Source: Parcubacteria group bacterium Gr01-1014_31 (GTDB lineage: Bacteria > Patescibacteriota > Patescibacteriia > Buchananbacterales > GWA2-38-13). From it: a DNA stretch of 64,000 nucleotides. The stretch's first letter is position 1. Each line of letters starts with the position of its first letter. Below are positions 2,640 to 50,904 of the stretch, piece after piece. The stretch lies in assembly GCA_007376135.1 (NCBI GenBank), contig VMFR01000001.1, forward strand, positions 9,259 through 73,258, given 5' to 3'. A model generated the notes under the pieces. It saw nothing but the letters and a program-made list of their open reading frames with translations. It made no database searches and had not been told where the DNA came from. Both the position numbers and the translations under genes were made by a program.

Positions 2640-4049
2640 ATGCGCCGTATTCTCATCGTCAATCCGAATCTCTACTCATCGCGCGCCACCGTGATGCGCG
2701 GGCGGCACCGGCCGCCGCTGGACTTGGCCTACATTGCCGCTCTCCTGCGCAACGATTTTGAAGTGCGGCTCGTGGACGCGCGCGTCGACAATCTTGATGT
2801 GTGCCAGATGTACGCGGAGGTGGCGGCCTATTCTCCCGAGGTGCTCATTACGACGACCACGCCCGTGGACCGCTGGGAGTGCCCGCAGTCCTATTTGGAG
2901 TCATTCTTCAGCTGGCTTGGCGATGTTGCCAACCTGCCCACCAAGCCCGTGATCATCGTCACGGGCACGCACGGCACCACGCAGCCCGACTGGCTGCTGC
3001 GCCGTTGCCCGTCCATCGATTTCTTGGTGCGCGGCGAACCTGAACGGACGTGTGAGGCGTTGGTGCGCGCAATTGCGGCCGGCGGCCATCCGTCCGTCAT
3101 CGCCGGAGTGTCGTACCGCCAGGAGGAAAAGATCCTGCACAATCAGGCAGCACCGCGCATTCTGGACCTGGACGCCCTGCCCTTGCCGGCCTACGACCTG
3201 CTGCCGATGGGCAAGTACCGCTACACGTTCGGCGACATCCCGCAACCGTTCTCCATCGTGCTGGCCACCCGCGGGTGCCCGTACCGCTGCACCTTCTGCT
3301 GCCGGGTCATGATGGAGAACGCCTACGTTACGCGCAAACCCCAGCAGGTGTACGATGAATTGAAGTACCTGCGCGAGCGGTTCGGCGTGCGCGGGATTTT
3401 TTTCCAGGACTGGGAGTTCACCATCAACAAGTTTTTCGTCAATGCGCTGATGGACCTGCTGCTCGCCAAGCCGTTGGGCATCACCTGGGGTTGTAACGCG
3501 CGCGCCAATGATTTCCAACAACCCCAACTGTTCGAGAAGATGCAGCGGGCCGGCTTGGTGCGGGTGAACATCGGCTTTGAGTCCGGTTCTCCCGAGGTCC
3601 TGGAGGCGGTCAACAAGAAGATCACGGTCGACGACCTGGCGCGGGCCATAGAAGTGACCCGGCGGCTGAAGCTGCACTTGGGAATGTACGCGCTGCTCAA
3701 CGCGCCCGGGGAAACGGCAAAAACCATCCGCGAAACCATGGCGTTCCTCAAGCGCCAGGGGATCAGTTCGATGAATTTCAACCTGGTCGTGCCGTACTTC
3801 GGCACCGCGGTGCACGAGCAGCTGCGCGAGCAGCTCGGCCCCGAAGCGGCCGAGCACCTGACCTGGGATACCATCGAAGAGTACGCCGGCCGCACCCGCA
3901 CGCAGTTGCCGCCTTGGCTGGCGCGCCTCTACCAGCGTCACACGAAATACCGCCTCTCCAGCGGGCCGATCTACTGGCTGCGCCCTGCGGTCTGGGCCGA
4001 GGTCGGGAGAAAGGTCGTGGGCCGCATGCATCCGCATGAGGGAAAGTAG
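2640..4049 (+). CDS. B12-binding-domain radical SAM protein
   Basis: N-terminal Rossmann-like B12-binding region (RILIVNPN...LDLAYIAALLR); CxxxCxxC cluster motif GCPYRCTFC; start moved to internal ATG 2640. Confidence 0.8.
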   Translation: MRRILIVNPNLYSSRATVMRGRHRPPLDLAYIAALLRNDFEVRLVDARVDNLDVCQMYAEVAAYSPEVLITTTTPVDRWECPQSYLESFFSWLGDVANLPTKPVIIVTGTHGTTQPDWLLRRCPSIDFLVRGEPERTCEALVRAIAAGGHPSVIAGVSYRQEEKILHNQAAPRILDLDALPLPAYDLLPMGKYRYTFGDIPQPFSIVLATRGCPYRCTFCCRVMMENAYVTRKPQQVYDELKYLRERFGVRGIFFQDWEFTINKFFVNALMDLLLAKPLGITWGCNARANDFQQPQLFEKMQRAGLVRVNIGFESGSPEVLEAVNKKITVDDLARAIEVTRRLKLHLGMYALLNAPGETAKTIRETMAFLKRQGISSMNFNLVVPYFGTAVHEQLREQLGPEAAEHLTWDTIEEYAGRTRTQLPPWLARLYQRHTKYRLSSGPIYWLRPAVWAEVGRKVVGRMHPHEGK

Positions 4050-15421: not shown

Positions 15422-15553
15422 ATGGGGTACCTGTGCACTGAGTGCGGCTACTCCACGGAGCATCCAGGGCATTGTCCCGAGTGCGAGTTACTACTGCAGG
15501 AGATTTGCGAGACCTGCGGGCAGTTGCTGGCCGAGTGCGAGTGCGACGATTAG
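15422..15553 (+). CDS. 43-aa Cys-rich peptide (3x CxxC + CxC), zinc-ribbon-like
   Basis: MGYLCTECGYSTEHPGHCPECELLLQEICETCGQLLAECECDD; below track size cut-off; weak RBS. Confidence 0.3.
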   Translation: MGYLCTECGYSTEHPGHCPECELLLQEICETCGQLLAECECDD

Positions 15554-17726: not shown

Positions 17727-20594
17727 ATGTCGGAGGAATTCATCAAAATTCGCGGCGCGCGCGAGCATAATCTGAAGAATATCTCGGTCGATATTCCCAT
17801 CGACCAGTTGACGGTCATTACCGGGCTGTCGGGTTCTGGCAAGTCGTCGTTGGCGTTCGATACCCTCTACGCTGAAGGGCAGCGCCGCTACGTGGAGTCG
17901 CTCTCCGCGTACGCGCGGCAGTTTTTGGGCGTCATGGGCAAACCCGACGTCGATAAGATCACCGGGCTTTCTCCCGCCATTTCCATCGAGCAGAAATCGG
18001 TATCCAAGAACCCGCGCTCGACGGTCGGCACCGTCACCGAGATCTATGATTACCTGCGGTTGCTGTTCGCGCGCATCGGCGAGCCGCACTGCCCGCGCTG
18101 CGGGAACAGTATCGCCCCGCAGTCGGCCGAACAGATCGTCGCGACGCTGCTGCAACAGCCTGCCGGTACCATGTTCACGATCTTTGCACCGGTAGTGCGC
18201 GGACGCAAGGGAACCTACGGGGCGCTGTTTGCCGATCTGGCCGCTCGCGGGTTTGCTCGTGCGCGCGTGGACGGCAAACTGCGGGATCTGGCCGACTGGG
18301 AGCAGTACCGGCTGGATAAACAGGTCAAACACACCGTCGACGTGTTGGTCGACCGCATCAGCGCCAGCGACAAGGCAAAAAGCCGGTTGACCGAGGCCGT
18401 GGAAACGGCGCTGGGGGCGACCGACGGTCTGGTAATTTCCTCATTCGGGGAGGGGAAGTCGGCCCGCGAGCAATTATTCTCGCGCAACTACGCCTGTGCG
18501 GCGTGCGGCATCTCGGTAGACGATCTGCAGCCGCGGCTGTTTTCCTTTAATTCGCCGTTCGGGGCCTGTCCGGAGTGCCATGGGTTGGGTATCTCACAGA
18601 AGTTCGACCCCGAACTGGTGGTGCCCGACGACCATAAGGCGCTTTCCGAGGGCGCGGTGCGGCCCTGGCAGACCCATCTGGATGGCTGGCGCAACCGGTT
18701 GGTGGAGAGTGTGGCGCGCCACTACCATGTCGACCCCTGGACCCCCTGGCGCAAGCTGCCCGCAACGTTCAAGAGCGTCATCCTGTACGGCAGCGAGGAG
18801 GAGATCGATTTCAAGCTTGAGTCCTACGGCGGCGATTCATCCTGGCAGTTCACCAAGACCTTCGAGGGGGTGATCCCGCAGCTGGAACGGCTCTACCATC
18901 AGACCACTTCCGCTTACCGCCGCGAGGAAATGGAAAAATATATGCGCGTGGCCACCTGCCCTGCCTGCGGAGGCAAGCGGTTGAAGCCCGAGGCGCTGGC
19001 GGTAACCGTCAACGGGCGCAATATCTGGGAGGCCTGTGAGCTGGCGGTCGAGGATCTGCTGAAGACCTTCGGCGGCATGCCGATGACCCCGACTCAGCAG
19101 GCGGTTTCCGGCGTCATTGTCAAGGAGGTCATTGCGCGCCTGACGTTCCTGGTCGACGTGGGCCTGGGCTACCTGACGCTGGCGCGACAGGCCGGTACCC
19201 TGGCGGGCGGCGAAGCGCAGCGCATCCGGCTGGCAACCCAGATCGGTTCCGAGCTGCGCGGCGTGCTCTATATTCTGGATGAACCGAGTATCGGGTTGCA
19301 CCAGCGCGACAATGCCAAGCTGATCAGCACCCTGCGGCGTTTACGCGACCTCGGCAATACCGTGGTCGTGGTCGAACACGACGAGGAGACCATCCGTACC
19401 GCCGACTTCGTGCTGGACCTCGGACCGGGTGCGGGCATCCACGGCGGGGAGGTTGTGGCGGCCGGCACGCCCCAAGAGATCGAGCAAAACCCGGCGTCGC
19501 TCACCGGGCGTTACCTGTCGCGCCGGCTGCAGATCCCGGTACCGGACAAGCGGCGCAAGGTTTTTGATGTTCTTGAGGTCGTCGGCGCGGCCGAGCACAA
19601 CTTGAAAGGTATTGACGTCAAATTCCCGCTCCATGTGTTGACCTGCGTCTCCGGGGTTTCCGGTTCAGGGAAATCCACGCTGGTGAACGACATCCTTGCT
19701 CAGGCGCTGCAAAAGATCTTCAACGCCTCAAGCGACCGGCCCGGCAAACACCGCCTGCTTCGCGGGTACGGCCAGCTCGACAAGGTCGTGCTGGTGGACC
19801 AGTCGCCCATCGGGCGCACCCCGCGGTCCAACCCGGTGACCTACATCGGTGCGTTCACCGCGATCCGCGAGCTCTTTGCCCAGACCACGGAGGCCAAGGC
19901 GCGCGGCTACCAGCCGGGGCGATTCTCCTTCAACGTGGCAGGAGGCCGGTGCGAAGAGTGCGACGGCGACGGGGTCAAAAAGATCGAGATGCATTTTTTG
20001 CCGGACGTGTACGTGACCTGTGAACGCTGCAAGGGATTGCGTTACAATGCCGAAACGCTCGCCGTGCGGTATAAGGGAAAAACCATCGCTGAGGTGCTGG
20101 CGATGTCCGTGGAGGAGGCGCTCGCTTTTTTTGCGCCGCTGCCGGGGCTGGCGCACAAACTTCAGACCCTTCACGACGTCGGCCTGGGGTACATTCATCT
20201 CGGGCAGTCGGCCACCACGCTATCGGGCGGGGAGGCGCAACGCATCAAACTGACCTCGGAACTGTCGCGCAAAGGCGGCCGGACGCTCTATATCCTGGAT
20301 GAACCGACCACCGGATTGCATTTTGCGGATGTGCAGAAGCTATTAGATGTGCTCAACCGGCTGGTCTCGAAGGGTAATTCGGTGCTGGTCATCGAGCACA
20401 ATCTGGACGTGCTGAAGTCAGCCGACTGGATCGTCGACTTGGGACCTGAAGGCGGGGAGCGGGGCGGCCGCGTCATTGCCGAAGGCACGCCGGAAAAGAT
20501 CGCCAAATGCTGGCGCTGGTCGCACACCGGTCGTTACTTGCGGCCTCTACTGGGCGGCGCGCGCCCAGTGGTGAGAAAAAAAAGACGGCCGTAG
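17727..20594 (+). CDS. uvrA: excinuclease ABC subunit A
   Basis: two ABC ATPase modules ([14 protein letters not shown]; [11 protein letters not shown]), zinc fingers CxxC; start at ATG 17727 ([19 protein letters not shown]). Confidence 0.95.
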
Positions 20595-20631
20595 CAGAGC
20601 TGAAGCCGCTTTGATGCCCGTTTTCTCGCGC

Positions 20632-20665
20632 AAAAAAAGAGAGGGTCGACCGCTGGGGTCGACCC
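20632..20665 (-). terminator. intrinsic terminator for small gene A (minus strand)
   Basis: GGGTCGACC / GGTCGACCC stem followed on minus strand by T7. Confidence 0.55.
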
Positions 20666-20686
20666 GGTGGAAAAAGGGCGTCGTCG

Positions 20687-20890
20687 TTACGACTCCTCGT
20701 CGCTGACGGTCCGGGAAAGAACCGGTATCGGTTGAAGGGGGTCGTGGCCGAGGCGTCTGAGCTCAGGGCCGGTTACGTAGTCGATGTTGCCACCGCACTG
20801 GGGGCAGCTGCCCTCCTCGTCGGGCACCACCGGCACCCGGCACTTGACCCCGCGGCAAAACGGAAAGGAACCAAGCTCCTCATGGTCCAT
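20687..20890 (-). CDS. 67-aa zinc-ribbon-like protein (C-x4-C ... C-x2-C)
   Basis: ATG 20890 with AGGAGGAG SD 5 nt upstream; MDHEELGSFPFCRGVKCRVPVVPDEEGSCPQCGG... Confidence 0.6.
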   Translation of the reverse strand: MDHEELGSFPFCRGVKCRVPVVPDEEGSCPQCGGNIDYVTGPELRRLGHDPLQPIPVLSRTVSDEES

Positions 20891-20923
20891 CACTCTCCTC
20901 CTGTCATTTGGAGTTTCAGGTAT

Positions 20924-20945
20924 AAAAAAAACCCGCTTCGGGCGG
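20924..20945 (-). terminator. terminator-like hairpin + U8 inside the 5' leader of gene A (possible attenuator)
   Basis: minus-strand GCCCGAAGCGGG followed by TTTTTTTT, ~30 nt upstream of the SD of gene A and ~60 nt downstream of its promoter. Confidence 0.4.
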
Positions 20946-21009
20946 ATAGCGGCGCGGGTGCTCCCGCCTGATCGGATAGTCGTCGTTTTCAAGGACGCAA
21001 ATTATCAGA

Positions 21010-21038
21010 ATGGTAACGCGCGTCGCATGCGCTGTCAA
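21010..21038 (-). promoter_or_regulatory. sigma70-like promoter TTGACA-N17-TACCAT (minus strand) for gene A
   Basis: plus-strand TGTCAA 21033-21038 and ATGGTA 21010-21015. Confidence 0.45.
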
Positions 21039-21068
21039 GGGTTTGGTGTGGATAAGCGCGAAAAGCCT

Positions 21069-21091
21069 AAAAAAAGACCGCTGGTGCGGTC
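21069..21091 (-). terminator. intrinsic terminator of gene B (minus strand)
   Basis: GACCGC-TGGT-GCGGTC hairpin followed on minus strand by T7. Confidence 0.6.
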
Positions 21092-21125
21092 TCGGCTGGG
21101 CGGCGCGGAAAGGGCGGCAAAGGAA

Positions 21126-21302
21126 TTATTGCCGGGGCTGGCGGGGTGGTCGGGTGACCACCCGATCTTTTTTGTCTAGCACCATGTCCGAAGCGACGAA
21201 AATACTTTGGCAATTGCGGCAGCGGTGTTCTTTGCCCTTGACGGGCGGAGGTGCGGGTTTGCCGCAGTAGGAGCATCTCCCCTTCACGATGTAGGCGATC
21301 AT
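21126..21302 (-). CDS. 58-aa zinc-ribbon protein (CxxC ... CxxC)
   Basis: ATG 21302 with AAGGAGGG SD; MIAYIVKGRCSYCGKPAPPPVKGKEHRCRNCQ... Confidence 0.6.
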   Translation of the reverse strand: MIAYIVKGRCSYCGKPAPPPVKGKEHRCRNCQSIFVASDMVLDKKDRVVTRPPRQPRQ

Positions 21303-21359
21303 GCGCCCTCCTTTTGGTGCACGTCGGCCGTTGTGAAAACAGCGGCATTCCCCCTTGGC

Positions 21360-21388
21360 GTTATACCTGGAGCGCCAACCACCGTCAA
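21360..21388 (-). promoter_or_regulatory. sigma70-like promoter TTGACG-N17-TATAAC (minus strand) for gene B
   Basis: plus CGTCAA 21383-21388, GTTATA 21360-21365. Confidence 0.5.
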
Positions 21389-21390
21389 GC

Positions 21391-21427
21391 AAAAAAAGAC
21401 GGGCCGGATGCGATGCAGCCGACCCGT
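21391..21427 (-). terminator. intrinsic terminator of gene C (minus strand)
   Basis: 9-bp stem ACGGGUCGG/CCGGCCCGU (one G-U) with 11-nt loop followed by U7. Confidence 0.7.
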
Positions 21428-21454
21428 TCCATGTCTGTTCTCCCCCGGAGAACT

Positions 21455-21646
21455 TCAGTCGAAGAACGCCCCCAGGCAGAAGTCATATCTGCACAAATTG
21501 CAGATGCTGCCTTCGTCGATAATGCCGCCGCAGCTGCAGTGGCATCCGTGCCTGACCGGCGGCCGCCGTTCGTTTGGAGCCTCAACGCGAGGTGGGAGCC
21601 CCTTGGGCGGACTGGATTCGGCGGAAGGCCGTTTCGAAGTTTCCAT
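21455..21646 (-). CDS. 63-aa Cys-rich protein (6 Cys: CHCSC...C..C.....C)
   Basis: ATG 21646 with GGAGG SD 6 nt upstream; consensus promoter upstream. Confidence 0.6.
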   Translation of the reverse strand: METSKRPSAESSPPKGLPPRVEAPNERRPPVRHGCHCSCGGIIDEGSICNLCRYDFCLGAFFD

Positions 21647-21713
21647 GAAATACCTCCATGGTTTTGGTGGTTTCTAGGTACAGGAGGAAACGAAGGTGCA
21701 TAAGATAACATCC

Positions 21714-21742
21714 ATTATATAACAAATAGTATGTTTTGTCAA
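21714..21742 (-). promoter_or_regulatory. perfect-consensus sigma70 promoter TTGACA-N17-TATAAT (minus strand) for gene C
   Basis: plus TGTCAA 21737-21742 and ATTATA 21714-21719; AT-rich context. Confidence 0.7.
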
Positions 21743-21940
21743 GGGTATTGAAAATAAAAAAGACGCCCCGGCAGATAGTTTGGGATTATTGCCGGAGCGT
21801 TGGGGATATTCTATGTCAAGAGGTCCTAGTCCGCCGTCGGCGTTCCTGCTATTATGCAGGTACGTCATTCTCCGAGGTCGCGTCGCTTCGGGCGGACCAC
21901 GGGCCGGGGGCTTCGCCGTCCGGTAACCATTCACTTCCGT

Positions 21941-22828
21941 ATGCGCCGAATCTTTGCGCGCTGGGCTGGAACGGGAGCGGTCGGGCGTCGTAGCCCCGTC
22001 ATCCGCAGCACGCTGCTGACCGTGCTGGCGGCCACCTTGGTCGCCGCCACCGTGCTGGCCGCGACCACCATCAGCACCAACGTCGTCACCGAGGGGACGC
22101 TGGCGGTGACGGGACGGGCGACCACGTCTGCCTCGTTAGTGATCGGCACCAGCCAGTCTGGGCCGTTCGACCTCGGCGCGGGCGATCTGTTCGTTGGCGG
22201 GGAAGCGACCACGACGGGCAACCTCGGCGTGGGCAACAGCTCCAATGCCGATGACGACTCCCTCTTCTTTGACCAACATGGCGCGGAAGCCTTGTGGTGG
22301 GACGACAGCCCCGGCCAGTTCCAGGTCACCGACGACCTCATCGTAAACGGGGCCGCGACCACCACCGGAACCCTCGCCATTGGCACGAGTGCCGCCTCTG
22401 ACGACGACTACCTCTTCTTCGACGACGGCTGGACCGAGGCGCTGTGGTGGGACAATGACCCCGGCCAGTTCCAGCTGACTGACGATCTCCTGGTGAGCGG
22501 CAACGCCACCACGACCGGCTACCTGGTGGTCGGCGGTACGAACCCCACCAGCAACCTCGCCGCCGGGTCCCTCTGGGTCAGCGGCACGGCCTCGTCCACC
22601 AACGTGGTGGTTTCCGGCCAGGCCACGACCACTGGCAACCTTTCCGTTGGCCACAGCAACCAGACGGCCAACAGCACCACCACCGTCACCTTCGGCAGCT
22701 ACGAGGCGACCAGCGTCAACCAGGGTGTCTGTCTCAAGATTCGCCAGGGCACTGCCTTCGTGTGGTGTTACATTGGCGGGGCCAACGGCACGACCCTCAC
22801 GTGCAGCAAGACGATCAGCTGCGAATAA
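21941..22828 (+). CDS. secreted repetitive surface protein (Thr/Gly-rich, ATTTGxLxVG repeats, C-terminal 4-Cys module)
   Basis: signal/TM at N-terminus from ATG 21941; ~50-aa tandem repeat DDD(S/Y)LFFD...ALWWD..PGQFQ(V/L)TDDL. Confidence 0.6.
   Translation: MRRIFARWAGTGAVGRRSPVIRSTLLTVLAATLVAATVLAATTISTNVVTEGTLAVTGRATTSASLVIGTSQSGPFDLGAGDLFVGGEATTTGNLGVGNSSNADDDSLFFDQHGAEALWWDDSPGQFQVTDDLIVNGAATTTGTLAIGTSAASDDDYLFFDDGWTEALWWDNDPGQFQLTDDLLVSGNATTTGYLVVGGTNPTSNLAAGSLWVSGTASSTNVVVSGQATTTGNLSVGHSNQTANSTTTVTFGSYEATSVNQGVCLKIRQGTAFVWCYIGGANGTTLTCSKTISCE
22246..22545 (+). repeat. two tandem ~150-nt coding repeats inside the surface-protein gene (coordinates approximate)
   Basis: ~75% nt identity between consecutive units; protein-level repeat obvious. 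Confidence 0.55.
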
Positions 22829-22837
22829 CCGGCGTGA

Positions 22838-24022
22838 ATGACGCTTCGTCCTATGTTCCGGCTCCTTCGATCAGTTTGGGTATTTGCTCTCGCGGCAGCA
22901 CTCGTACCCTTGGCCGGGCAGGCGGCGTACAACGACGTGCAATTCACTGCCGACACGAATCTTGAGTTGGCGAATGGCGACGTGGTGGTGGCGGAGAGTG
23001 GTGGGGCCGTTGAATCGTTGACCGTGAACGCCGCGTCGATCGAGATTACGATCTCCTCCGGTTCCTCTATCACGCTGCGCAGCGACGCCCGCCGGCAGAT
23101 GACCCTTTCGCCCGGTGTCGCGACGCTGACCTGCGGGAGTACGTCGTCGAGTTTTGCGCTGACCGGCGGCGCAAGTTTGCAGACGATAACGCTAACGGTC
23201 GAAGCGGGGTCCACCTGCACCGCGGCCGCGGCGGCAACCCCCACGCCCGCCAGCACGACCGGCAGAGGCGGCGGGCTGCCCCCACGGCCATCGCCGCCGA
23301 CGGCCGTCGCCGCCTCGATCAACGACGGCGCGGCGCAGACGGCCAGCCGCACGGTGACCCTGACCCTGCAGGCGACCAACGCCGTCCTGATGCTGGTGTC
23401 CAACTTCGCCGACTTCCATGATGCACCGTCCTGGGTGCCATACCGGACCAGCCTGCCGTGGACCTTGCGGGAAGGCACGGGCGAACAGTCCGTGTTCGTC
23501 AAGTTTCGCAGCCCGCAGGGCGGCGAGAGCGCGGTGGTGAGCGACGCGATTCAGCTGACGGGCGGTGGTGCCGGACCCGTTGCGCCACCGCCGGGCGTTG
23601 CGTTGACGGAAGGGTCGCTCGTCAAGGAGGCCGGCGCGCTACCGATCTACCGCATGGAAAACGGCGTTCTGCGCTGGTTGCCCAGCCCTACCATCTTCCT
23701 GGCGCACGGTCACCGCTGGCAGGACGTTCGCACCGTGGCGAGCCTCGCCGGGATTCCGCGGGGCGAACCATACTCGCTGTCTACCAGCCCGCAGCCGCGT
23801 TTCACGCTGCCGCTGCGCCGCGGCGTCAGCGGCCCGCAGGTGTACGCGCTCCAGCTGTTGCTGCAGACGCGCGGGTACTTCCCGACGACCGTGCCGCCCA
23901 CCGGGTACTTCGGGCCGGTCACCACGGCCGCCGTCGAACAGTTCCAGAGTGCACACGGGCTCCCAGTCGTCGGCAGCGTTGGCCCGCAGACCCGTGCGGT
24001 GTTGAACCAGCTCTCTCAGTAG
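22838..24022 (+). CDS. secreted protein with C-terminal peptidoglycan-binding domain (PG_binding_1-like)
   Basis: signal peptide (alt. start ATG 22853); C-terminal LPLRRGVSGPQVYALQLLLQTRGYF...GYFGPVTTAAVEQFQ. Confidence 0.65.
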   Translation: MTLRPMFRLLRSVWVFALAAALVPLAGQAAYNDVQFTADTNLELANGDVVVAESGGAVESLTVNAASIEITISSGSSITLRSDARRQMTLSPGVATLTCGSTSSSFALTGGASLQTITLTVEAGSTCTAAAAATPTPASTTGRGGGLPPRPSPPTAVAASINDGAAQTASRTVTLTLQATNAVLMLVSNFADFHDAPSWVPYRTSLPWTLREGTGEQSVFVKFRSPQGGESAVVSDAIQLTGGGAGPVAPPPGVALTEGSLVKEAGALPIYRMENGVLRWLPSPTIFLAHGHRWQDVRTVASLAGIPRGEPYSLSTSPQPRFTLPLRRGVSGPQVYALQLLLQTRGYFPTTVPPTGYFGPVTTAAVEQFQSAHGLPVVGSVGPQTRAVLNQLSQ

Positions 24023-24039
24023 TCGCGCCGCTTCGCTGC

Positions 24040-25400
24040 ACCAGTCGTACGGTCGCGGGAACTAGGACGCTCGCCAGAGAAGGTCCGAATCTACGGTCAC
24101 GCTGTGGGGTGTTCACCCTGTGGCGTGTTGCTGTTTACGCCATGGGCTACCGTCGGCGTATACCGGTACGGCTGCCGGTGCTTGAGCATGGCGTAGATGA
24201 TGTCCACGAGCCGCCGCTTGAGGCAGCAAAGCGCGTGGACCTTGGTCTTGCCCTCGGCGAGCTTCTTCTGGAAGTACTGGCGCGCGGCCGGATTCCCCGT
24301 GGGACTGATCTGGCTCAACGCGATGCGGTGCAGTGCCAGGTTGAGCCGACGGTTGCCGGCGCGGGTCTTGCGGTGCCGCACGGTCTTGCCCGAGGAACGT
24401 TCGCGCGGGCTCAACCCCGCGTACTTGGCGAGCGCTGACGGCGACCGGAAGCGTACGATGTCGCCCACCTCAGCGAGCACCAGCACCGCGAGCACCGGGC
24501 CGCAGCCGCTCATCGTGTCCAGGTACTGGCCCGAAGCGCGTAGGCACTCACGAAGGTCATCCTCGAGATCTTGGATCTGCTCGCGGCAGTAGGCCAGCCG
24601 TTCGATCTTGCGTCGGATTTGCCGCGCCAGCAGCACCGGGTCGCCCGGGACGTCGGTGGCCTTGCGGGGCACGGGGCAGCGGCGCCAGTAGCGCAGGGCC
24701 TTCTGTGAGAAAGGGTCGGTGAACTTGTCCCGGTAGGCGGAGTTGTACGCGGCATGGAGCAGCCGGTGGAGCTGGTTCTTCATTCGGGTCTGCTCCTTGA
24801 CGAGGAAGCTGCGGTCCAGCGTCAGCTCCTTGAGCGCCTTGGCGGTTTCCTCGGCCGGCGTTACGCTGTAGCTGGGCAAGCTGTCCATCCGCTGGATCAA
24901 GACTCGCGCGACGCCCAACGCATCCAGAGAATCCGTCTTCTCTGGATGCGTTTCGTGCCGGCGCAGCCGGTCCACCAGGATCGGCGCGACGGTCTTGACC
25001 GGCAGCCCGGCATCAGCCAGGTACCGGGCGAGCCGGAACCCGTAGCCGGTGCTGTCCTCGAGCGCGACCTGCGGGGTCAGCCCGCGCTCGGTCGCTTCAC
25101 GTTCAATAGCCGCAACGAAAGTTTGAAAATCTTCGGCCGTGTTGCCGACGGTCAGCTCCAGCAGGCGGTGGCCGAAGCAGTTGGTGAGAACGGCGGTGTG
25201 GCGGTCCTTGTGGACGTCGATGCCGACGTACAGGCAGCGGTCGGGCGCGGGTGCGTCGCGCAATTCCAAGGCACCACCCAGGCGGGTGCGCATAGGCTCA
25301 CTCGGGTGAGGGAATTAGCGACTCACCAGCGAAACTCCAGTATCCAGGCCTTCGCCCCGCGCGGGCAGGGCTGGCGATACTCTATTTGTTCATGCTGGTG
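24040..25400 (-). mobile_element. IS110-family insertion sequence (boundaries approximate; no terminal inverted repeats expected)
   Basis: single transposase ORF with IS110 N-terminal DEDD domain and C-terminal helix-hairpin-helix region, flanked by ~60 and ~100+ nt non-coding sequence, inserted between a surface-protein gene and uvrC. Confidence 0.6.
24097..25293 (-). CDS. IS110-family transposase
   Basis: LYVGIDVHKDRHTAVL... N-terminal motif; GCGPVLAVLVLAEVGDIVRF... C-terminal motif. Confidence 0.85.
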   Translation of the reverse strand: MRTRLGGALELRDAPAPDRCLYVGIDVHKDRHTAVLTNCFGHRLLELTVGNTAEDFQTFVAAIEREATERGLTPQVALEDSTGYGFRLARYLADAGLPVKTVAPILVDRLRRHETHPEKTDSLDALGVARVLIQRMDSLPSYSVTPAEETAKALKELTLDRSFLVKEQTRMKNQLHRLLHAAYNSAYRDKFTDPFSQKALRYWRRCPVPRKATDVPGDPVLLARQIRRKIERLAYCREQIQDLEDDLRECLRASGQYLDTMSGCGPVLAVLVLAEVGDIVRFRSPSALAKYAGLSPRERSSGKTVRHRKTRAGNRRLNLALHRIALSQISPTGNPAARQYFQKKLAEGKTKVHALCCLKRRLVDIIYAMLKHRQPYRYTPTVAHGVNSNTPQGEHPTA

Positions 25401-25621
25401 AAGGACGAAGGCAAGCTGCAATCCCCGGATAGCCTTGCGGTCGGCAGCAGTTGTGCGGGCAATACCTGCCTCCGCCTCCACCGTACCACACGGGGGTAGC
25501 TTCCTGCACCCTGCCCAAATCTTTGCATACTGGCAGTTGTGGGCTGCGGTTATTCTAGTGGCCGATTGATTGCCCACCTGCTTTGCGGGGACTTGGTCCC
25601 CAAGAACAAGGAGGAGTCGAA

Positions 25622-25708
25622 ATGCCGGATGATATTGGTAGCCACCAATATATTGCGGTAGTAAATGTTTGTCAAGGCGTTCCCATCTGTAAGCTGCCGT
25701 GGTAGGAT
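25622..25708 (+). CDS. 28-codon upstream ORF with strong SD, ending 4 nt before uvrC start
   Basis: AAGGAGGAG-5nt-ATG; MPDDIGSHQYIAVVNVCQGVPICKLPW; speculative. Confidence 0.2.
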
Positions 25709-25712
25709 TTTT

Positions 25713-27308
25713 ATGCTTATGTTCAGCGATGCGCTCGCGAAGGTCACGTTGCCGGAAGCCCCGGGGAGCTACCAGTTCTTCGACGCGAAGGGCGAGGTTA
25801 TCTATGTCGGCAAGGCCAAGAGTATCGCCAAGCGCGTTGCCAGCTACCGCCGCGCAAGCGACTACAAAACCACCCGGCTGCTGACGGAGGTCGCCGACAT
25901 CCAGTGCACCGTCACGGGGAGCGAAGTGGAGGCGCTGCTGCTGGAAGCCAAGCTCATTCGTCAGCATCAGCCCAAATACAACATCACCCTCAAGGGCGGC
26001 GAACGCTACGCGTACATTCAGGTGACCAATGAACCGTTCCCGCGCCTGGTGACCACGCGCCAGCCCAAGCCCGGCGACCGGGTTTTTGGTCCCTACACGT
26101 CGGGGGAGGCGCGCGTGCAAGCCATCCATTTGGCGAATACGCTGTTCAAACTCCGCGTGTGCAAGCGGTTGCCGAAGCGTCCCTGCCTGCTCTACCACAT
26201 GAAATTGTGCTCGGCGCCGTGTATCGGCAACATCACCAAGGATGCCTATGCGCGGAATGTGAAGCAAGCCGAACGGCTGCTGCGCGGCGATGTACCACCG
26301 CTGGTCGATGATTTAACGCGGGAGATGAGGGAGTACGCCGCGCAACAGGAGTATGAACAGGCGAAGCTTCGGCGCGACCAGGTCCGCGCACTGCAGCGAA
26401 TAGGGAACGAACCGGGGGCGAAGCTGCGCCAGGCCTATGATCAGGATGTGGTCAATTTTTCTGCGGCCGGAGCCAAGGTTGTCGTGCAGGTGTTCCACGT
26501 CAATCGCGGCATCATCTCGCGTCGGCGCGAGTTCACCCTGCGCCGTACGTTGCCGCAATCCGACGCCGCGATGCTGGCAGATTTTTTGACCCAGTACTAC
26601 TACGCCGAGGACATTCCGGGCGAGGTCATTGTGCCCATCGCCGCGGAGCGGCAGCCGGTGGTGGCCAATTACCTGTCGCAGGCCGCCGGCCGCAAGGTGC
26701 GCATCACCGTGCCCAAGCAGGGAGAAAAATTACGGCTCCTCGAGCTGCTGGCCGAAAATATCGCCGTCAGTTTGAAGGCGGGCGACAGCGCGCTTTTGGA
26801 ACTGCAGGAAAAATTGCGTTTGCCGCGGTTGCCGCGCGTGATTGAATGCGTGGATATTTCCAATCTTGGCCCGACCAACGCGGTCGGGTCATTGGTTTTT
26901 TTCCGTGACGGCAAGCCGGACAAGAACGAGTACCGGCGGTTCAAGGTCCGCACCGTGGCGGGGCAGTCGGACTACGACGCAATGAAGGAGGTCATTGGCC
27001 GACGCTTCCGCCGGTTGCTGGCGGATCGCGCTGCGCTGCCCGACCTGCTGCTGGTGGACGGGGGCAAGCCGCAGCTGTCCGCCGCGGTGTCGGTCTTCCG
27101 GGAGCTTGGGCTGCAGCAGCCCGTCGCGGCCCTGGCCAAGCGCCGGGAGGAACTGTACACGACGGATAGTCAGTACCCGTTGCGCATTGCCCGGACGTCG
27201 CCGGCGTTGAAACTGGTCCAGCGCGTCCGCAATGAAGCCCACCGATTTGCCATTGGCTACCAGCGCCTCCTGCGGGGTAAAGATCTGCGGGCGCAGTTAA
27301 AATTTTAA
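25713..27308 (+). CDS. uvrC: excinuclease ABC subunit C
   Basis: GIY-YIG N-terminal (PGSYQFFDAKGEVIYVGKAK), UvrBC domain, RNaseH-like endonuclease domain, C-terminal HhH; start ATG 25713. Confidence 0.9.
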   Translation: MLMFSDALAKVTLPEAPGSYQFFDAKGEVIYVGKAKSIAKRVASYRRASDYKTTRLLTEVADIQCTVTGSEVEALLLEAKLIRQHQPKYNITLKGGERYAYIQVTNEPFPRLVTTRQPKPGDRVFGPYTSGEARVQAIHLANTLFKLRVCKRLPKRPCLLYHMKLCSAPCIGNITKDAYARNVKQAERLLRGDVPPLVDDLTREMREYAAQQEYEQAKLRRDQVRALQRIGNEPGAKLRQAYDQDVVNFSAAGAKVVVQVFHVNRGIISRRREFTLRRTLPQSDAAMLADFLTQYYYAEDIPGEVIVPIAAERQPVVANYLSQAAGRKVRITVPKQGEKLRLLELLAENIAVSLKAGDSALLELQEKLRLPRLPRVIECVDISNLGPTNAVGSLVFFRDGKPDKNEYRRFKVRTVAGQSDYDAMKEVIGRRFRRLLADRAALPDLLLVDGGKPQLSAAVSVFRELGLQQPVAALAKRREELYTTDSQYPLRIARTSPALKLVQRVRNEAHRFAIGYQRLLRGKDLRAQLKF

Positions 27309-49811: not shown

Positions 49812-50569
49812 AGCGCCGCGCCGCGTGGACCAAGGCTCAACTGGCGGCTCACCTGGCCGCCGCGCGCCTGTTGGAGCAGGTGCGCGACGAGGTCTGGTGG
49901 TATTTGCGTTCGCAGCGGCGGGCCAGCGAGCGCGCAACGCAGGAGTTCGTGCTCGGCCGTTTCCGCCGTTACGGGTTGCGGAACGAATTGTCGCGGCCGA
50001 TCGTCGCATTTGGCGCTCATACGGGCGAGGTGCACTATTTCCCGCCCGCTCGCGGTTCGGCCCGTTTTCGCCGCGGGACCTGGGTGCTTTTGGATCTGTG
50101 GGCCAGATTGCAGCAGCCGGGAGCACCGTACGCGGACGCCACCTGGATGGCTTGGTACGGCTCACGCGTGCCGACGAGATTGGCGCGGGCATTTGCCGCG
50201 GTGCGGGCGGCGCGCGATGCGAGCCTGCGCTATTTGCTGACACAGACCGCGTCGGGGGCGGTTCCCAGTGGAGCGGCCCTGGATGGGGTCGCCCGTCGGT
50301 CGCTGCACCGGGCCGGCTTCCGCGGAAAATTCACTCACAGTCTTGGACATAGTCTGGGGCTCCACGGACCGCACGGGAGTCAGGGGCCGCTTTCGCCAAA
50401 AAATCCGAAATCCTTGGTCCCGGGTGTCGGGTATACGATCGAACCGGGCATCTACCTGCCGGGCCGCTACGGTGTGCGGCTGGAAATGGACCTGATGTTG
50501 ACCTCCGAGCGGCAGGTCATCGTGACCACCGCGCTGCAGCAGAATATCATCCGGCTTTCGGCCGGATAA
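49808..50569 (+). CDS. M24-family metallopeptidase catalytic domain (Xaa-Pro aminopeptidase/creatinase-like)
   Basis: HSLGHSLGLHGPHG and GYTIEPGIYLPGRYGVRLEMD pita-bread motifs. Confidence 0.65.
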   Translation: MKRRAAWTKAQLAAHLAAARLLEQVRDEVWWYLRSQRRASERATQEFVLGRFRRYGLRNELSRPIVAFGAHTGEVHYFPPARGSARFRRGTWVLLDLWARLQQPGAPYADATWMAWYGSRVPTRLARAFAAVRAARDASLRYLLTQTASGAVPSGAALDGVARRSLHRAGFRGKFTHSLGHSLGLHGPHGSQGPLSPKNPKSLVPGVGYTIEPGIYLPGRYGVRLEMDLMLTSERQVIVTTALQQNIIRLSAG

Positions 50570-50608
50570 AAAAAGACCGGCGTGAGCTCGTGTGAGCTCC
50601 CACCGGTC
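50568..50608 (-). terminator. intrinsic terminator (minus strand) for small gene D
   Basis: GACCGG...CCGGTC stem with internal GTGAGCTC repeats, followed on minus strand by T7. Confidence 0.55.
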
Positions 50609-50618
50609 AAGGCGAACA

Positions 50619-50828
50619 TCAGAGGATGTGGGAGAACCCCACGATCTTCTCGGCACGCTGGCCGCAGGCGAGGCATACCCACCGTACGCAGCGGGCGAAC
50701 ACTCGGACCCCACGCAGGGTCACTTCTCGCGGCCCCCAATGCTGGAGGCGAACCTTGCCTGTCGGATGCTCGCAACTACAGGGCGGCTCCTCCTCGTTCG
50801 CTTTCGGCGACGACTCCTTGTGGAGCAT
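50619..50828 (-). CDS. 69-aa Cys-rich protein (CSC ... C-x4-C-x2-C)
   Basis: ATG 50828 with AGAGGG SD; consensus promoter upstream; MLHKESSPKANEEEPPCSCEHP...CVRWVCLACG. Confidence 0.45.
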   Translation of the reverse strand: MLHKESSPKANEEEPPCSCEHPTGKVRLQHWGPREVTLRGVRVFARCVRWVCLACGQRAEKIVGFSHIL

Positions 50829-50875
50829 GGCACCCTCTGGTGAAAAGAACCCAGTCAGACCCAATGTGCTCCGGT

Positions 50876-50904
50876 ATACTACATAGTTTTTGAACCATTG
50901 TCAA
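50876..50904 (-). promoter_or_regulatory. sigma70 promoter TTGACA-N17-TAGTAT (minus strand) for gene D
   Basis: plus TGTCAA 50899-50904 and ATACTA 50876-50881. Confidence 0.55.

Follow-up and report, generated by a model that had tools for sequence, protein, structure and literature searches.

Three very short, cysteine-rich open reading frames (ORFs) lie beside uvrA in the genome of Parcubacteria group bacterium Gr01-1014_31, and they raise the question of whether such small frames, each with expression signals of its own, encode real proteins and how the production of these proteins would be controlled. Gr01-1014_31 is a metagenome-assembled genome (MAG) of the candidate phyla radiation (CPR) with a GC content of ~62%; the stretch that was analysed, termed the window throughout, comprises 64,000 nucleotides (nt) of its contig VMFR01000001.1, and coordinates refer to the window unless a relative is named. 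CPR bacteria (Patescibacteria) are known from small, mostly uncultivated genomes in which many genes are unannotated, and their regulation is almost undescribed. An earlier reading of this DNA from its letters (the sequence-only reading) had recognized three units here, each consisting of a promoter, a Shine-Dalgarno sequence (SD), an ORF and a terminator, and this is borne out by direct reading of the minus strand, the ORF listing and a consensus scan: all three units are on the minus strand and together span 20633-21742. Their products are termed P1, P2 and P3; P2 (58 aa) and P1 (63 aa) are identical to the hypothetical proteins G01um101431_34 and G01um101431_35, respectively, on a 539-kb contig. 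The explanation that we consider probable is that P1-P3 form a lineage-specific cluster, conserved in a groundwater clade of Parcubacteria-like CPR bacteria, in which each gene has its own sigma70 promoter, SD and terminator and in which the third unit also carries a DnaA box and an attenuator leader. What this adds to the list of three ORFs is the conserved architecture of the cluster and, in unit 3, a regulatory region that comprises a DnaA-box consensus and a conserved terminator-containing leader.

The gene cluster and its relatives

With P1 and P2, word-based protein searches returned self or near-self matches only; with P3 they yielded a single truncated relative. This partial P3 relative led to L082, a syntenic contig from a sister MAG, which is the closest relative (UvrA 95% identical), and an exhaustive HMMER profile search with P3 uncovered four further small homologues on contigs L086-L089, which stem from groundwater metagenomes (Hainich and Rifle) and from two Logan assemblies. 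Counting the window genome together with these relatives, P1 is present in five lineages, P3 in six and P2 in two, and UvrA is 77-95% identical across the clade. All three ORFs hence have homologues in related groundwater CPR contigs, which is the conservation that the sequence-only reading had proposed as a check. The ancestral gene order can be reconstructed as uvrC, pointing away from the cluster, a non-coding unit (unit 0), then P1, P2 (in some lineages) and P3 in one direction, and finally uvrA pointing towards them. L087 carries P1, P2 and P3 in the same order as the window; L088 and L089 have uvrC on the minus strand, P1, P3 preceded by its leader, and uvrA on the minus strand; and L086 has the leader and P3 convergent with uvrA. 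The convergent arrangement of P3 and uvrA is found wherever the flank is available. Outside this clade, a tblastn scan of genome contigs selected by UvrA found no homologue of P1-P3 downstream of uvrA in 80 other loci across phyla, these being distant taxa with at most 62% identity; a scan of JGI metagenome contigs with the P3 alignment gave nothing useful, and viral contigs scanned with P1 and with the product of a fourth unit described below (P4) gave no matches.

The features of the three units and the adjoining gene are as follows.

21714 to 21742, minus strand: unit 1 promoter, TTGACA-17-TATAAT, 12 of 12 in the consensus scan
21652 to 21657, minus strand: unit 1 SD, GGAGGT
21455 to 21646, minus strand: P1 ORF, 63 aa, homologues in L082, L087, L088 and L089
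21391 to 21427, minus strand: unit 1 intrinsic terminator, a 9+3-bp hairpin of -20 kcal/mol and T7, the hairpin standing immediately before TTTTTTT
21360 to 21388, minus strand: unit 2 promoter, TTGACG-17-TATAAC, 10 of 12 as found by eye, rejected by the scan for the C that ends the -10
21307 to 21313, minus strand: unit 2 SD, AAGGAGG
21126 to 21302, minus strand: P2 ORF, 58 aa, zinc-ribbon-type CxxC-x14-CxxC, homologue in L087
21067 to 21093, minus strand: unit 2 intrinsic terminator, stem 21093-21074 and T7, from the consensus scan
21010 to 21038, minus strand: unit 3 promoter, TTGACA-17-TACCAT, 10 of 12 in the consensus scan
20897 to 20902, minus strand: unit 3 SD, AGGAGG
20687 to 20890, minus strand: P3 ORF, 67 aa, zinc-ribbon-type C-x4-C-x11-CPxCGG with a short helix and an acidic tail, homologues in five relatives
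20633 to 20665, minus strand: unit 3 intrinsic terminator, 20665-20643 and T-tract, from the consensus scan
17727 to 20594, plus strand: uvrA, convergent with the cluster

Promoter-like sites that match the consensus at 10 or more of 12 positions occur 16 times in the window where 1.6 would be expected from Markov shuffles, and several of them stand before ordinary genes; because of this tenfold enrichment, the organism can be taken really to use such promoters. A hairpin followed by T5 was found after only 5 of 46 larger genes, and SD cores of 6-7 nt are likewise rare among them, a comparison that is approximate since the starts of these genes are crude and most of them lie in operons. Throughout the cluster the spacing of the -35 and -10 falls within 16-18 nt, the SD falls within 4-8 nt of the start codon and a GC hairpin with a U-tract follows at the 3' end, all of which is kept in relatives. 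The claim that the three units are transcribed independently is therefore plausible for each of them, in so far as promoters and terminators kept in relatives can indicate it, and units 1 and 2 seem to be plainly monocistronic. This high-GC Parcubacterium, with its canonical sigma70 promoters, SDs and intrinsic terminators, is one in which transcription units can be read from sequence.

The regulatory region of unit 3

Two elements upstream of P3 had no place in the sequence-only reading: an intrinsic terminator that closes a conserved leader RNA, and a perfect copy of the DnaA-box consensus.

20923 to 21003, minus strand: unit 3 leader RNA, ~80 nt, conserved, single copy in the window
21047 to 21055, minus strand: TTATCCACA, DnaA-box consensus without mismatch, 8 nt before the unit 3 -35

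The leader begins with 5' AAUUUG(G/C)G and continues with a hairpin that has a loop of the UUGACA/UUAACA type, a GGCGGG that pairs with CCCGC and is invariant across lineages, and a terminator composed of a GC stem (20947-20931) and U8 (20930-20923), all of it lying downstream of the unit 3 promoter and ahead of the SD. In all six lineages with P3 the promoter has an invariant TTGACA and a TAnnnT exactly 6 nt ahead of AATTTG, so that the conserved leader start, AAUUUGGG, lies exactly 6 nt past the -10 in every lineage, and the leader body measures ~80-110 nt. When compared with L082, 73 of 81 leader nucleotides are identical (90%), against ~0.61 for neutral identity at synonymous sites (P = 4e-9), and the 3' domain reaches 96% (P = 6e-8). 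A GC hairpin with U6-8 stands between promoter and SD in each of the six lineages; the distance from its T-tract to the P3 start codon is 32-51 nt (32 nt in the window), save for 100 nt in L088, and no promoter-like sequence was found in this interval. An intrinsic terminator is thus kept in the homologues between promoter and start codon with no internal promoter, which is the position of an attenuator. Since the terminator precedes the SD and space for a second promoter is lacking, P3 probably needs terminator read-through, and read-through of the leader terminator by RNA polymerase (transcription attenuation) would most likely be the sole route to P3. The suggestion that the proteins are probably abundant is consequently unsupported, given this terminator in front of P3 and the deletion of P2 in the closest relative. 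While the conservation and the position of the leader can be read directly from the alignments, its switching is something that we infer, and we describe the unit 3 leader as a candidate attenuator.

A covariance model of the leader 3' domain gave one match in the window (67.6 bits, the runner-up having 15 bits), and in the relatives its matches fell solely upstream of P3 homologues. Neither a pattern search, nor the covariance model, nor the 5' motif CAATTTGGGT revealed further copies in the window. Rfam 15 (4227 families) was run on the window, L082 and L089, and no family reached its gathering threshold; in E-value mode the matches were at chance level only (isrK, E = 3). When nascent leaders were folded without the 3' arm of the terminator, the 5' arm was engaged in an alternative helix in five of five cases, with GGCGG(G) as its partner in three, and where the terminator fold was not itself the minimum free energy (MFE) structure (window, L082 and L088) it lay 1.6-2.5 kcal/mol above it. 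These folds are compatible with a terminator/antiterminator switch. In L088 the terminator stem is CUCGC/GCGAG where UCCGC/GCGGA is found otherwise, which gives two compensatory pairs in a by-hand alignment alone. The leader resembles known terminator/antiterminator leaders (riboswitches, protein-dependent attenuators and leaders of ribosomal-protein genes) in that it is conserved, ends in an intrinsic terminator just before the SD and allows alternative pairing of the terminator 5' arm, and it differs from them in its lack of an Rfam match and in that no covariation could be demonstrated from six sequences.

The same elements might instead make up a gene for a trans-acting small RNA, composed of the unit 3 promoter, leader and terminator, with P3 arising from leaky read-through at a dual-output locus. 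The promoter, the conserved 5' end at its fixed distance from the -10, the length of the body and the intrinsic terminator all speak for such a gene, as does the presence of a second promoter-to-terminator non-coding unit, unit 0, in the cluster of the relatives. We nevertheless regard it as unlikely: the motif is always found directly in front of a P3 homologue, with no other occurrence in the sequences compared, so that cis-regulation fits better than a trans-acting RNA, and no target complementarity was identified.

The DnaA-box copy in front of unit 3 is the sole perfect one in the 64-kb window. The canonical DnaA-box consensus is TTATCCACA (PMC8203912), and a 9-mer within one mismatch of it recurs at a conserved position, 7-9 nt upstream of the -35, in four of the relatives: it is perfect in L082 and L088 and has one mismatch in L087 (TTTTCCACA) and in L089 (CTATCCACA). 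The sequence around the box cannot otherwise be aligned among those lineages, and the probability that three distant lineages share a box at that offset by chance is ~1e-11. DnaA is known to regulate transcription of sda, which encodes a small checkpoint protein, and of uvrB/recN (PMC8203912). It is a reasonable inference that unit 3 is under DnaA control, so that DnaA, and with it replication status, may additionally tune the initiation of unit 3; such control would give meaning to the uvrC/uvrA neighbourhood. The closest parallel is Bacillus subtilis sda, whose promoter carries DnaA boxes through which DnaA activates it (PMC8203912); there too the gene of a tiny protein has its own promoter adjoining a DnaA-box consensus, and E. 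coli uvrB, which has DnaA boxes, is a parallel to the repair and replication context of unit 3. Sda is helical, however, is not Cys-rich and has no homology to P3; the boxes are clustered at sda whereas unit 3 has one; and CPR bacteria are without the sporulation phosphorelay.

Taken to its furthest, this parallel would make unit 3 an Sda-like checkpoint module, in which a DnaA-box promoter and a novel attenuator or riboswitch-like leader would gate a zinc-ribbon microprotein within a nucleotide-excision-repair locus and couple it to replication or DNA-damage status, with P1, P2 and unit 0 as further parts of a stress module; this is a tentative proposal, argued by analogy, and a doubtful one. 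If the leader truly senses a signal, or if DnaA really acts at the box, the circuit would be among the first regulatory circuits described for the CPR radiation; otherwise the locus holds lineage-specific hypothetical small proteins of an ordinary kind.

A plainer alternative is that these are three constitutive and highly expressed monocistronic microprotein genes, and that the leader hairpin and TTATCCACA are incidental. The consensus or near-consensus promoters, the SD cores of 6-7 nt and the strong terminators are what such genes would show, and the leader structure is without covariation support. The chances of this explanation are nonetheless rather poor, because the leader (90-96%) and the box have been kept far better than synonymous sites, because both persist where P3 is only 33-44% identical, and because the hairpin with U6-8 sits between promoter and SD in six of six lineages with no space for a second promoter.

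Coding status and class of P1-P3

Four cysteines are invariant in each family (in five lineages for P1, two for P2 and six for P3), and the codons used for conserved residues have changed: at least two codons occur at 9 of 12 invariant residues of P1 (including Ser as AGC, TCC and AGT), 14 of the 26 residues identical between P2 and its L087 homologue differ in codon, and so do five of five invariant residues of P3. These switches include Ser AGY/TCN and Arg AGA/CGA, and such differences at invariant residues point to selection on the protein rather than on the RNA. P3 is 76% identical to its L082 homologue, with a ratio of non-synonymous to synonymous substitution rates (dN/dS, omega) of 0.26, compared with 0.06 for uvrA (dS ~0.5); P1 is 63% identical with a dN/dS of 0.63 and with indels that are all in frame; and P2 is 47% identical to a homologue at the equivalent position in L087. 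The view that these are real proteins has therefore gained in strength, in view of the Cys4 kept under changing codons, the dN/dS of P3 and the homologues in relatives, and it is well supported by the comparison of lineages that P1, P2 and P3 are genuine coding genes under protein-level selection. They add three new Cys4 microprotein families, two of whose ORFs had been annotated as hypothetical.

The Cys4 arrangement is Cx(2,4)C-x11-CxxC in P3 across lineages. In P1 it is confined to the conserved C-terminal ~30 aa, R-C-S-C-G-G-x2-D-x4-C-x2-C-x-[FY]-D (that is, CxC-x9-CxxC), while the N-terminal half is Pro/Arg-rich and variable. As motifs, the zinc-ribbon-like patterns of the sequence-only reading thus stand, with four invariant cysteines per family, whereas its count of six cysteines in P1 includes two, C35 and C57, that are not conserved. 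Each protein fits the pattern of a single domain below ~70-100 aa with two Cys pairs at least nine residues apart that are kept in the homologues, and P1-P3 are new, narrow, lineage-specific families within the known class of one-domain Cys4 microproteins of the zinc-ribbon or zinc-finger type. Prokaryotic zinc-finger microproteins with a single domain and a C(P)XCG motif have been described (PMC6562870, PMC11241148), and HVO_2753 and HVO_0758 of Haloferax volcanii share with P1-P3 a size below 70 aa, a single domain and two Cys pairs (CPxCG(G) in P3, CxxCG in P2); many of them are likewise lineage-specific and without known partners. On the other hand, homology between the two groups is not detectable, P1-P3 are bacterial (CPR) rather than archaeal, and the CxC...CxxC arrangement of P1 is unusual. 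In each case, a protein of ~60 aa would be built around one Cys4 metal site of the zinc-ribbon or zinc-knuckle type; zinc binding is predicted from the motifs, and C(P)XCG motifs do not always bind zinc and can be metal-free (PMC11241148). By analogy, P1-P3 most likely serve as small binding or regulatory modules.

No family of Pfam, NCBIfam, PHROG or PADLOC reached significance with P1-P3. The best Pfam scores were 13-15 bits (top 14.7) against gathering cut-offs of 27-30, P1 being without any Pfam match; the Pfam families Zn_ribbon_3 (PF13248), Zn_ribbon_4 (PF13717), DZR, DUF7129 and DUF7575 resemble the proteins in Cys spacing and in their predicted beta-hairpin knuckles, with scores far below the thresholds. 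A profile search of the PDB gave a best E of 0.011, from a stretch with CxxC only, and the Pfam and NCBIfam models of the ribosomal proteins bL31, bL32, bL33, bL36, uS14 and bS18 had no match to P1-P3 even at E <= 10. Ribosomal-protein, defence-system, phage and toxin-antitoxin identities were rejected, all of Pfam, NCBIfam, PADLOC, PHROGs and the PDB having remained below threshold. An AlphaFold2 (AF2) model of P3, with a predicted local distance difference test score (pLDDT) of 77.8, has beta-hairpins or short strands flanking the knuckles and a short helix; its top Foldseek matches are zinc-ribbon modules (among them the adenylate kinase lid and MCM) and are non-significant (E >= 0.16). The single-sequence AF2 model of P1 (pLDDT 55) was too poor to use.

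Their cysteines could also mark the proteins as agents of metal homeostasis, that is, as metallothionein-like zinc or copper buffers under metal-responsive control, and a conserved 43-aa peptide with nine cysteines does lie 5 kb away beside a cupredoxin gene. Dense conserved cysteines of the metallothionein kind are lacking, though; four conserved cysteines per protein suggest a structural site rather than a metal buffer, no metal-regulator motif was recognized, and the neighbours are uvrA and uvrC, not transporters. We consider this explanation very unlikely, and the metal-responsive role that had been hinted at for the proteins is likewise unsupported. That the ORFs are untranslated and the units are non-coding RNAs with chance open frames is barely credible, since the Cys4 and neighbouring residues are invariant despite codon changes, the omega of P3 is low, indels are all in frame and SD spacing is correct in every lineage, against which can be set only the omega, even substitutions and poor codon score of P1 and the want of family membership.

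Several observations weigh against the cluster being a conserved set of microprotein genes with an attenuated and perhaps DnaA-controlled third unit. P1 is under weak constraint overall, with an omega of 0.63 and substitutions distributed evenly among the codon positions, and its reading frame is not the best of six by codon usage; both the high omega and the poor codon score can be attributed to an N-terminal half that drifts freely. For the leader, a formal count of base pairs in the six sequences found 84.7% of cells paired, with no double change and no more pairing than in shuffles; folded singly, the sequences give ordinary z-scores (-2.1 to +0.4), and an argument from alternative pairing is weak in a GC-rich RNA. 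L086 is without a box at the conserved offset, and a single DnaA box need not be functional. Finally, the synteny with uvrA and uvrC is rather shallow, given that UvrA is 77-95% identical throughout, so that the neighbourhood may be inherited rather than functional.

Units 1 and 2, the insertion and other small Cys-rich proteins

The unit 1 promoter is kept in L082 (12 of 12) and L089 (11 of 12) and was also read in L087, and a counterpart of the unit 1 terminator hairpin was found in L082 and L089. An SD-sequestering hairpin in the unit 1 5' untranslated region (UTR), noticed by eye, was dropped as it is not kept between relatives, and the same applies to LexA/SOS-box-like palindromes noticed in the promoters. 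At the position of the unit 2 promoter L087 has TTGACA-17-TATACA. P2 has been lost from L082 through a 278-bp deletion (L082 4590-4615 versus window 21366-21095), which left a decayed -35 and an intact terminator, and it is absent from L088 and L089; P2 thus appears to have been repeatedly dispensable. L089 has a promoter-like site (3759-3788) without an ORF at the place equivalent to unit 2. The P2 leader of L087 (590-700) holds the hairpin TGCCCATCACTGGGCA followed by T-runs ahead of the SD, and that of the window has a hairpin GCCG...CGGC without a T-tract.

Downstream of P3, the 3' UTR and terminator (20636-20686, minus strand) are 98% identical to L082, which is above either coding sequence, and L089 has the terminator stem GGGTCGACC...GGTCGACCC as well. 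Another hairpin/T8-like element lies on the minus strand at 20577-20619 and overlaps the last codons of uvrA. In L088, the interval from the leader terminator to the P3 homologue holds a short frame at 2354-2431 (MREKVWCGHVKCRVGVMVPCSLRKE, followed by a stop) that is similar to the N-terminal end of P3, FCRGVKCRVPVVP, and that seems to be either a partial duplication now decayed or a former start of the P3 gene.

Relative to L082 and L089, the window contains an insertion of 3.73 kb (21804-25532) which cuts the cluster off from uvrC (25665-27308). The genes within it are one for an IS110-family transposase on the minus strand (24097-25293) and, on the plus strand, one for a 324-aa repeat protein and one for a 394-aa protein with a PG_binding_1 domain; its junctions read ...CAACTGCC/AGTATGC at 25533 and ...ATATCC/CCAACGC at 21803. 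It is an IS110-associated insertion that separated the cluster from uvrC in this genome. In the ~240 nt of non-coding sequence at the end upstream of the transposase, GCCCGCACAACTGCTGCC (25460-25443) is similar to the target CAGCCCACAACTGCC and might be the loop by which an IS110 bridge RNA binds its target.

The insertion has also split unit 0, whose terminator it separated from the promoter, and the orphaned 3' end remains just upstream of unit 1, where the sequence-only reading had passed over it.

21752 to 21803, minus strand: relic terminator, the orphaned 3' end of unit 0, hairpin and T-tract

Unit 0 is conserved and divergent from uvrC and comprises a promoter (TTGACA-17-TATATT), a body of ~150 nt and an intrinsic terminator; it occupies 25675-25533 and 21803-21752 of the window (minus strand), 4039-4225 of L082 and ~3234-3410 of L089. 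It is non-coding, as the lengths of the indels that separate L082 from L089 are not divisible by three. One of its hairpins shows a compensatory change (GGGGAC/GUCCCC versus GAGGGA/UCCCUC), a CCUCCU stretch is present, and no Rfam match was obtained; on these features unit 0 is a candidate small RNA.

Two further small Cys-rich products had been pointed out in the window, and the sequences are as follows.

50619 to 50904, minus strand: fourth unit, with promoter at 50904-50876 and the P4 ORF (69 aa) at 50828-50619, followed by a hairpin of -25 kcal/mol and T7
15422 to 15553, plus strand: 43-aa peptide with nine cysteines, CxxC-x9-CxxC-x7-CxxC-x6-CxC, between a cupredoxin-domain gene and uvrB

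The fourth unit, given as 50568-50904, was recovered as sequence with its promoter, ORF and hairpin with T7; it has every signal of such a unit, and by codon usage its frame scores higher than the other five. The sole other copy of P4 found, in L084, is 100% identical. The P4 5' UTR (50859-50868, minus strand) starts with ...CACATTGGGTC ~8 nt past the -10, which recalls the AATTTGGGT start of the unit 3 leader; a window-wide count of motifs like the leader start was not above chance. The 43-aa peptide is present as described, and it does not share the architecture of the other units, having neither a promoter nor an SD of its own. Its database matches were rubredoxin-like only and sub-threshold, and a scan of metagenome contigs gave nothing useful. 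It is syntenic in L082, where it stands at the end of a thioredoxin/DsbD/SOD/cupredoxin cluster, and is far more constrained than P1-P3: 42 of 43 residues are identical, dN/dS is 0.02, and third codon positions account for 9 of the 11 nucleotide differences.

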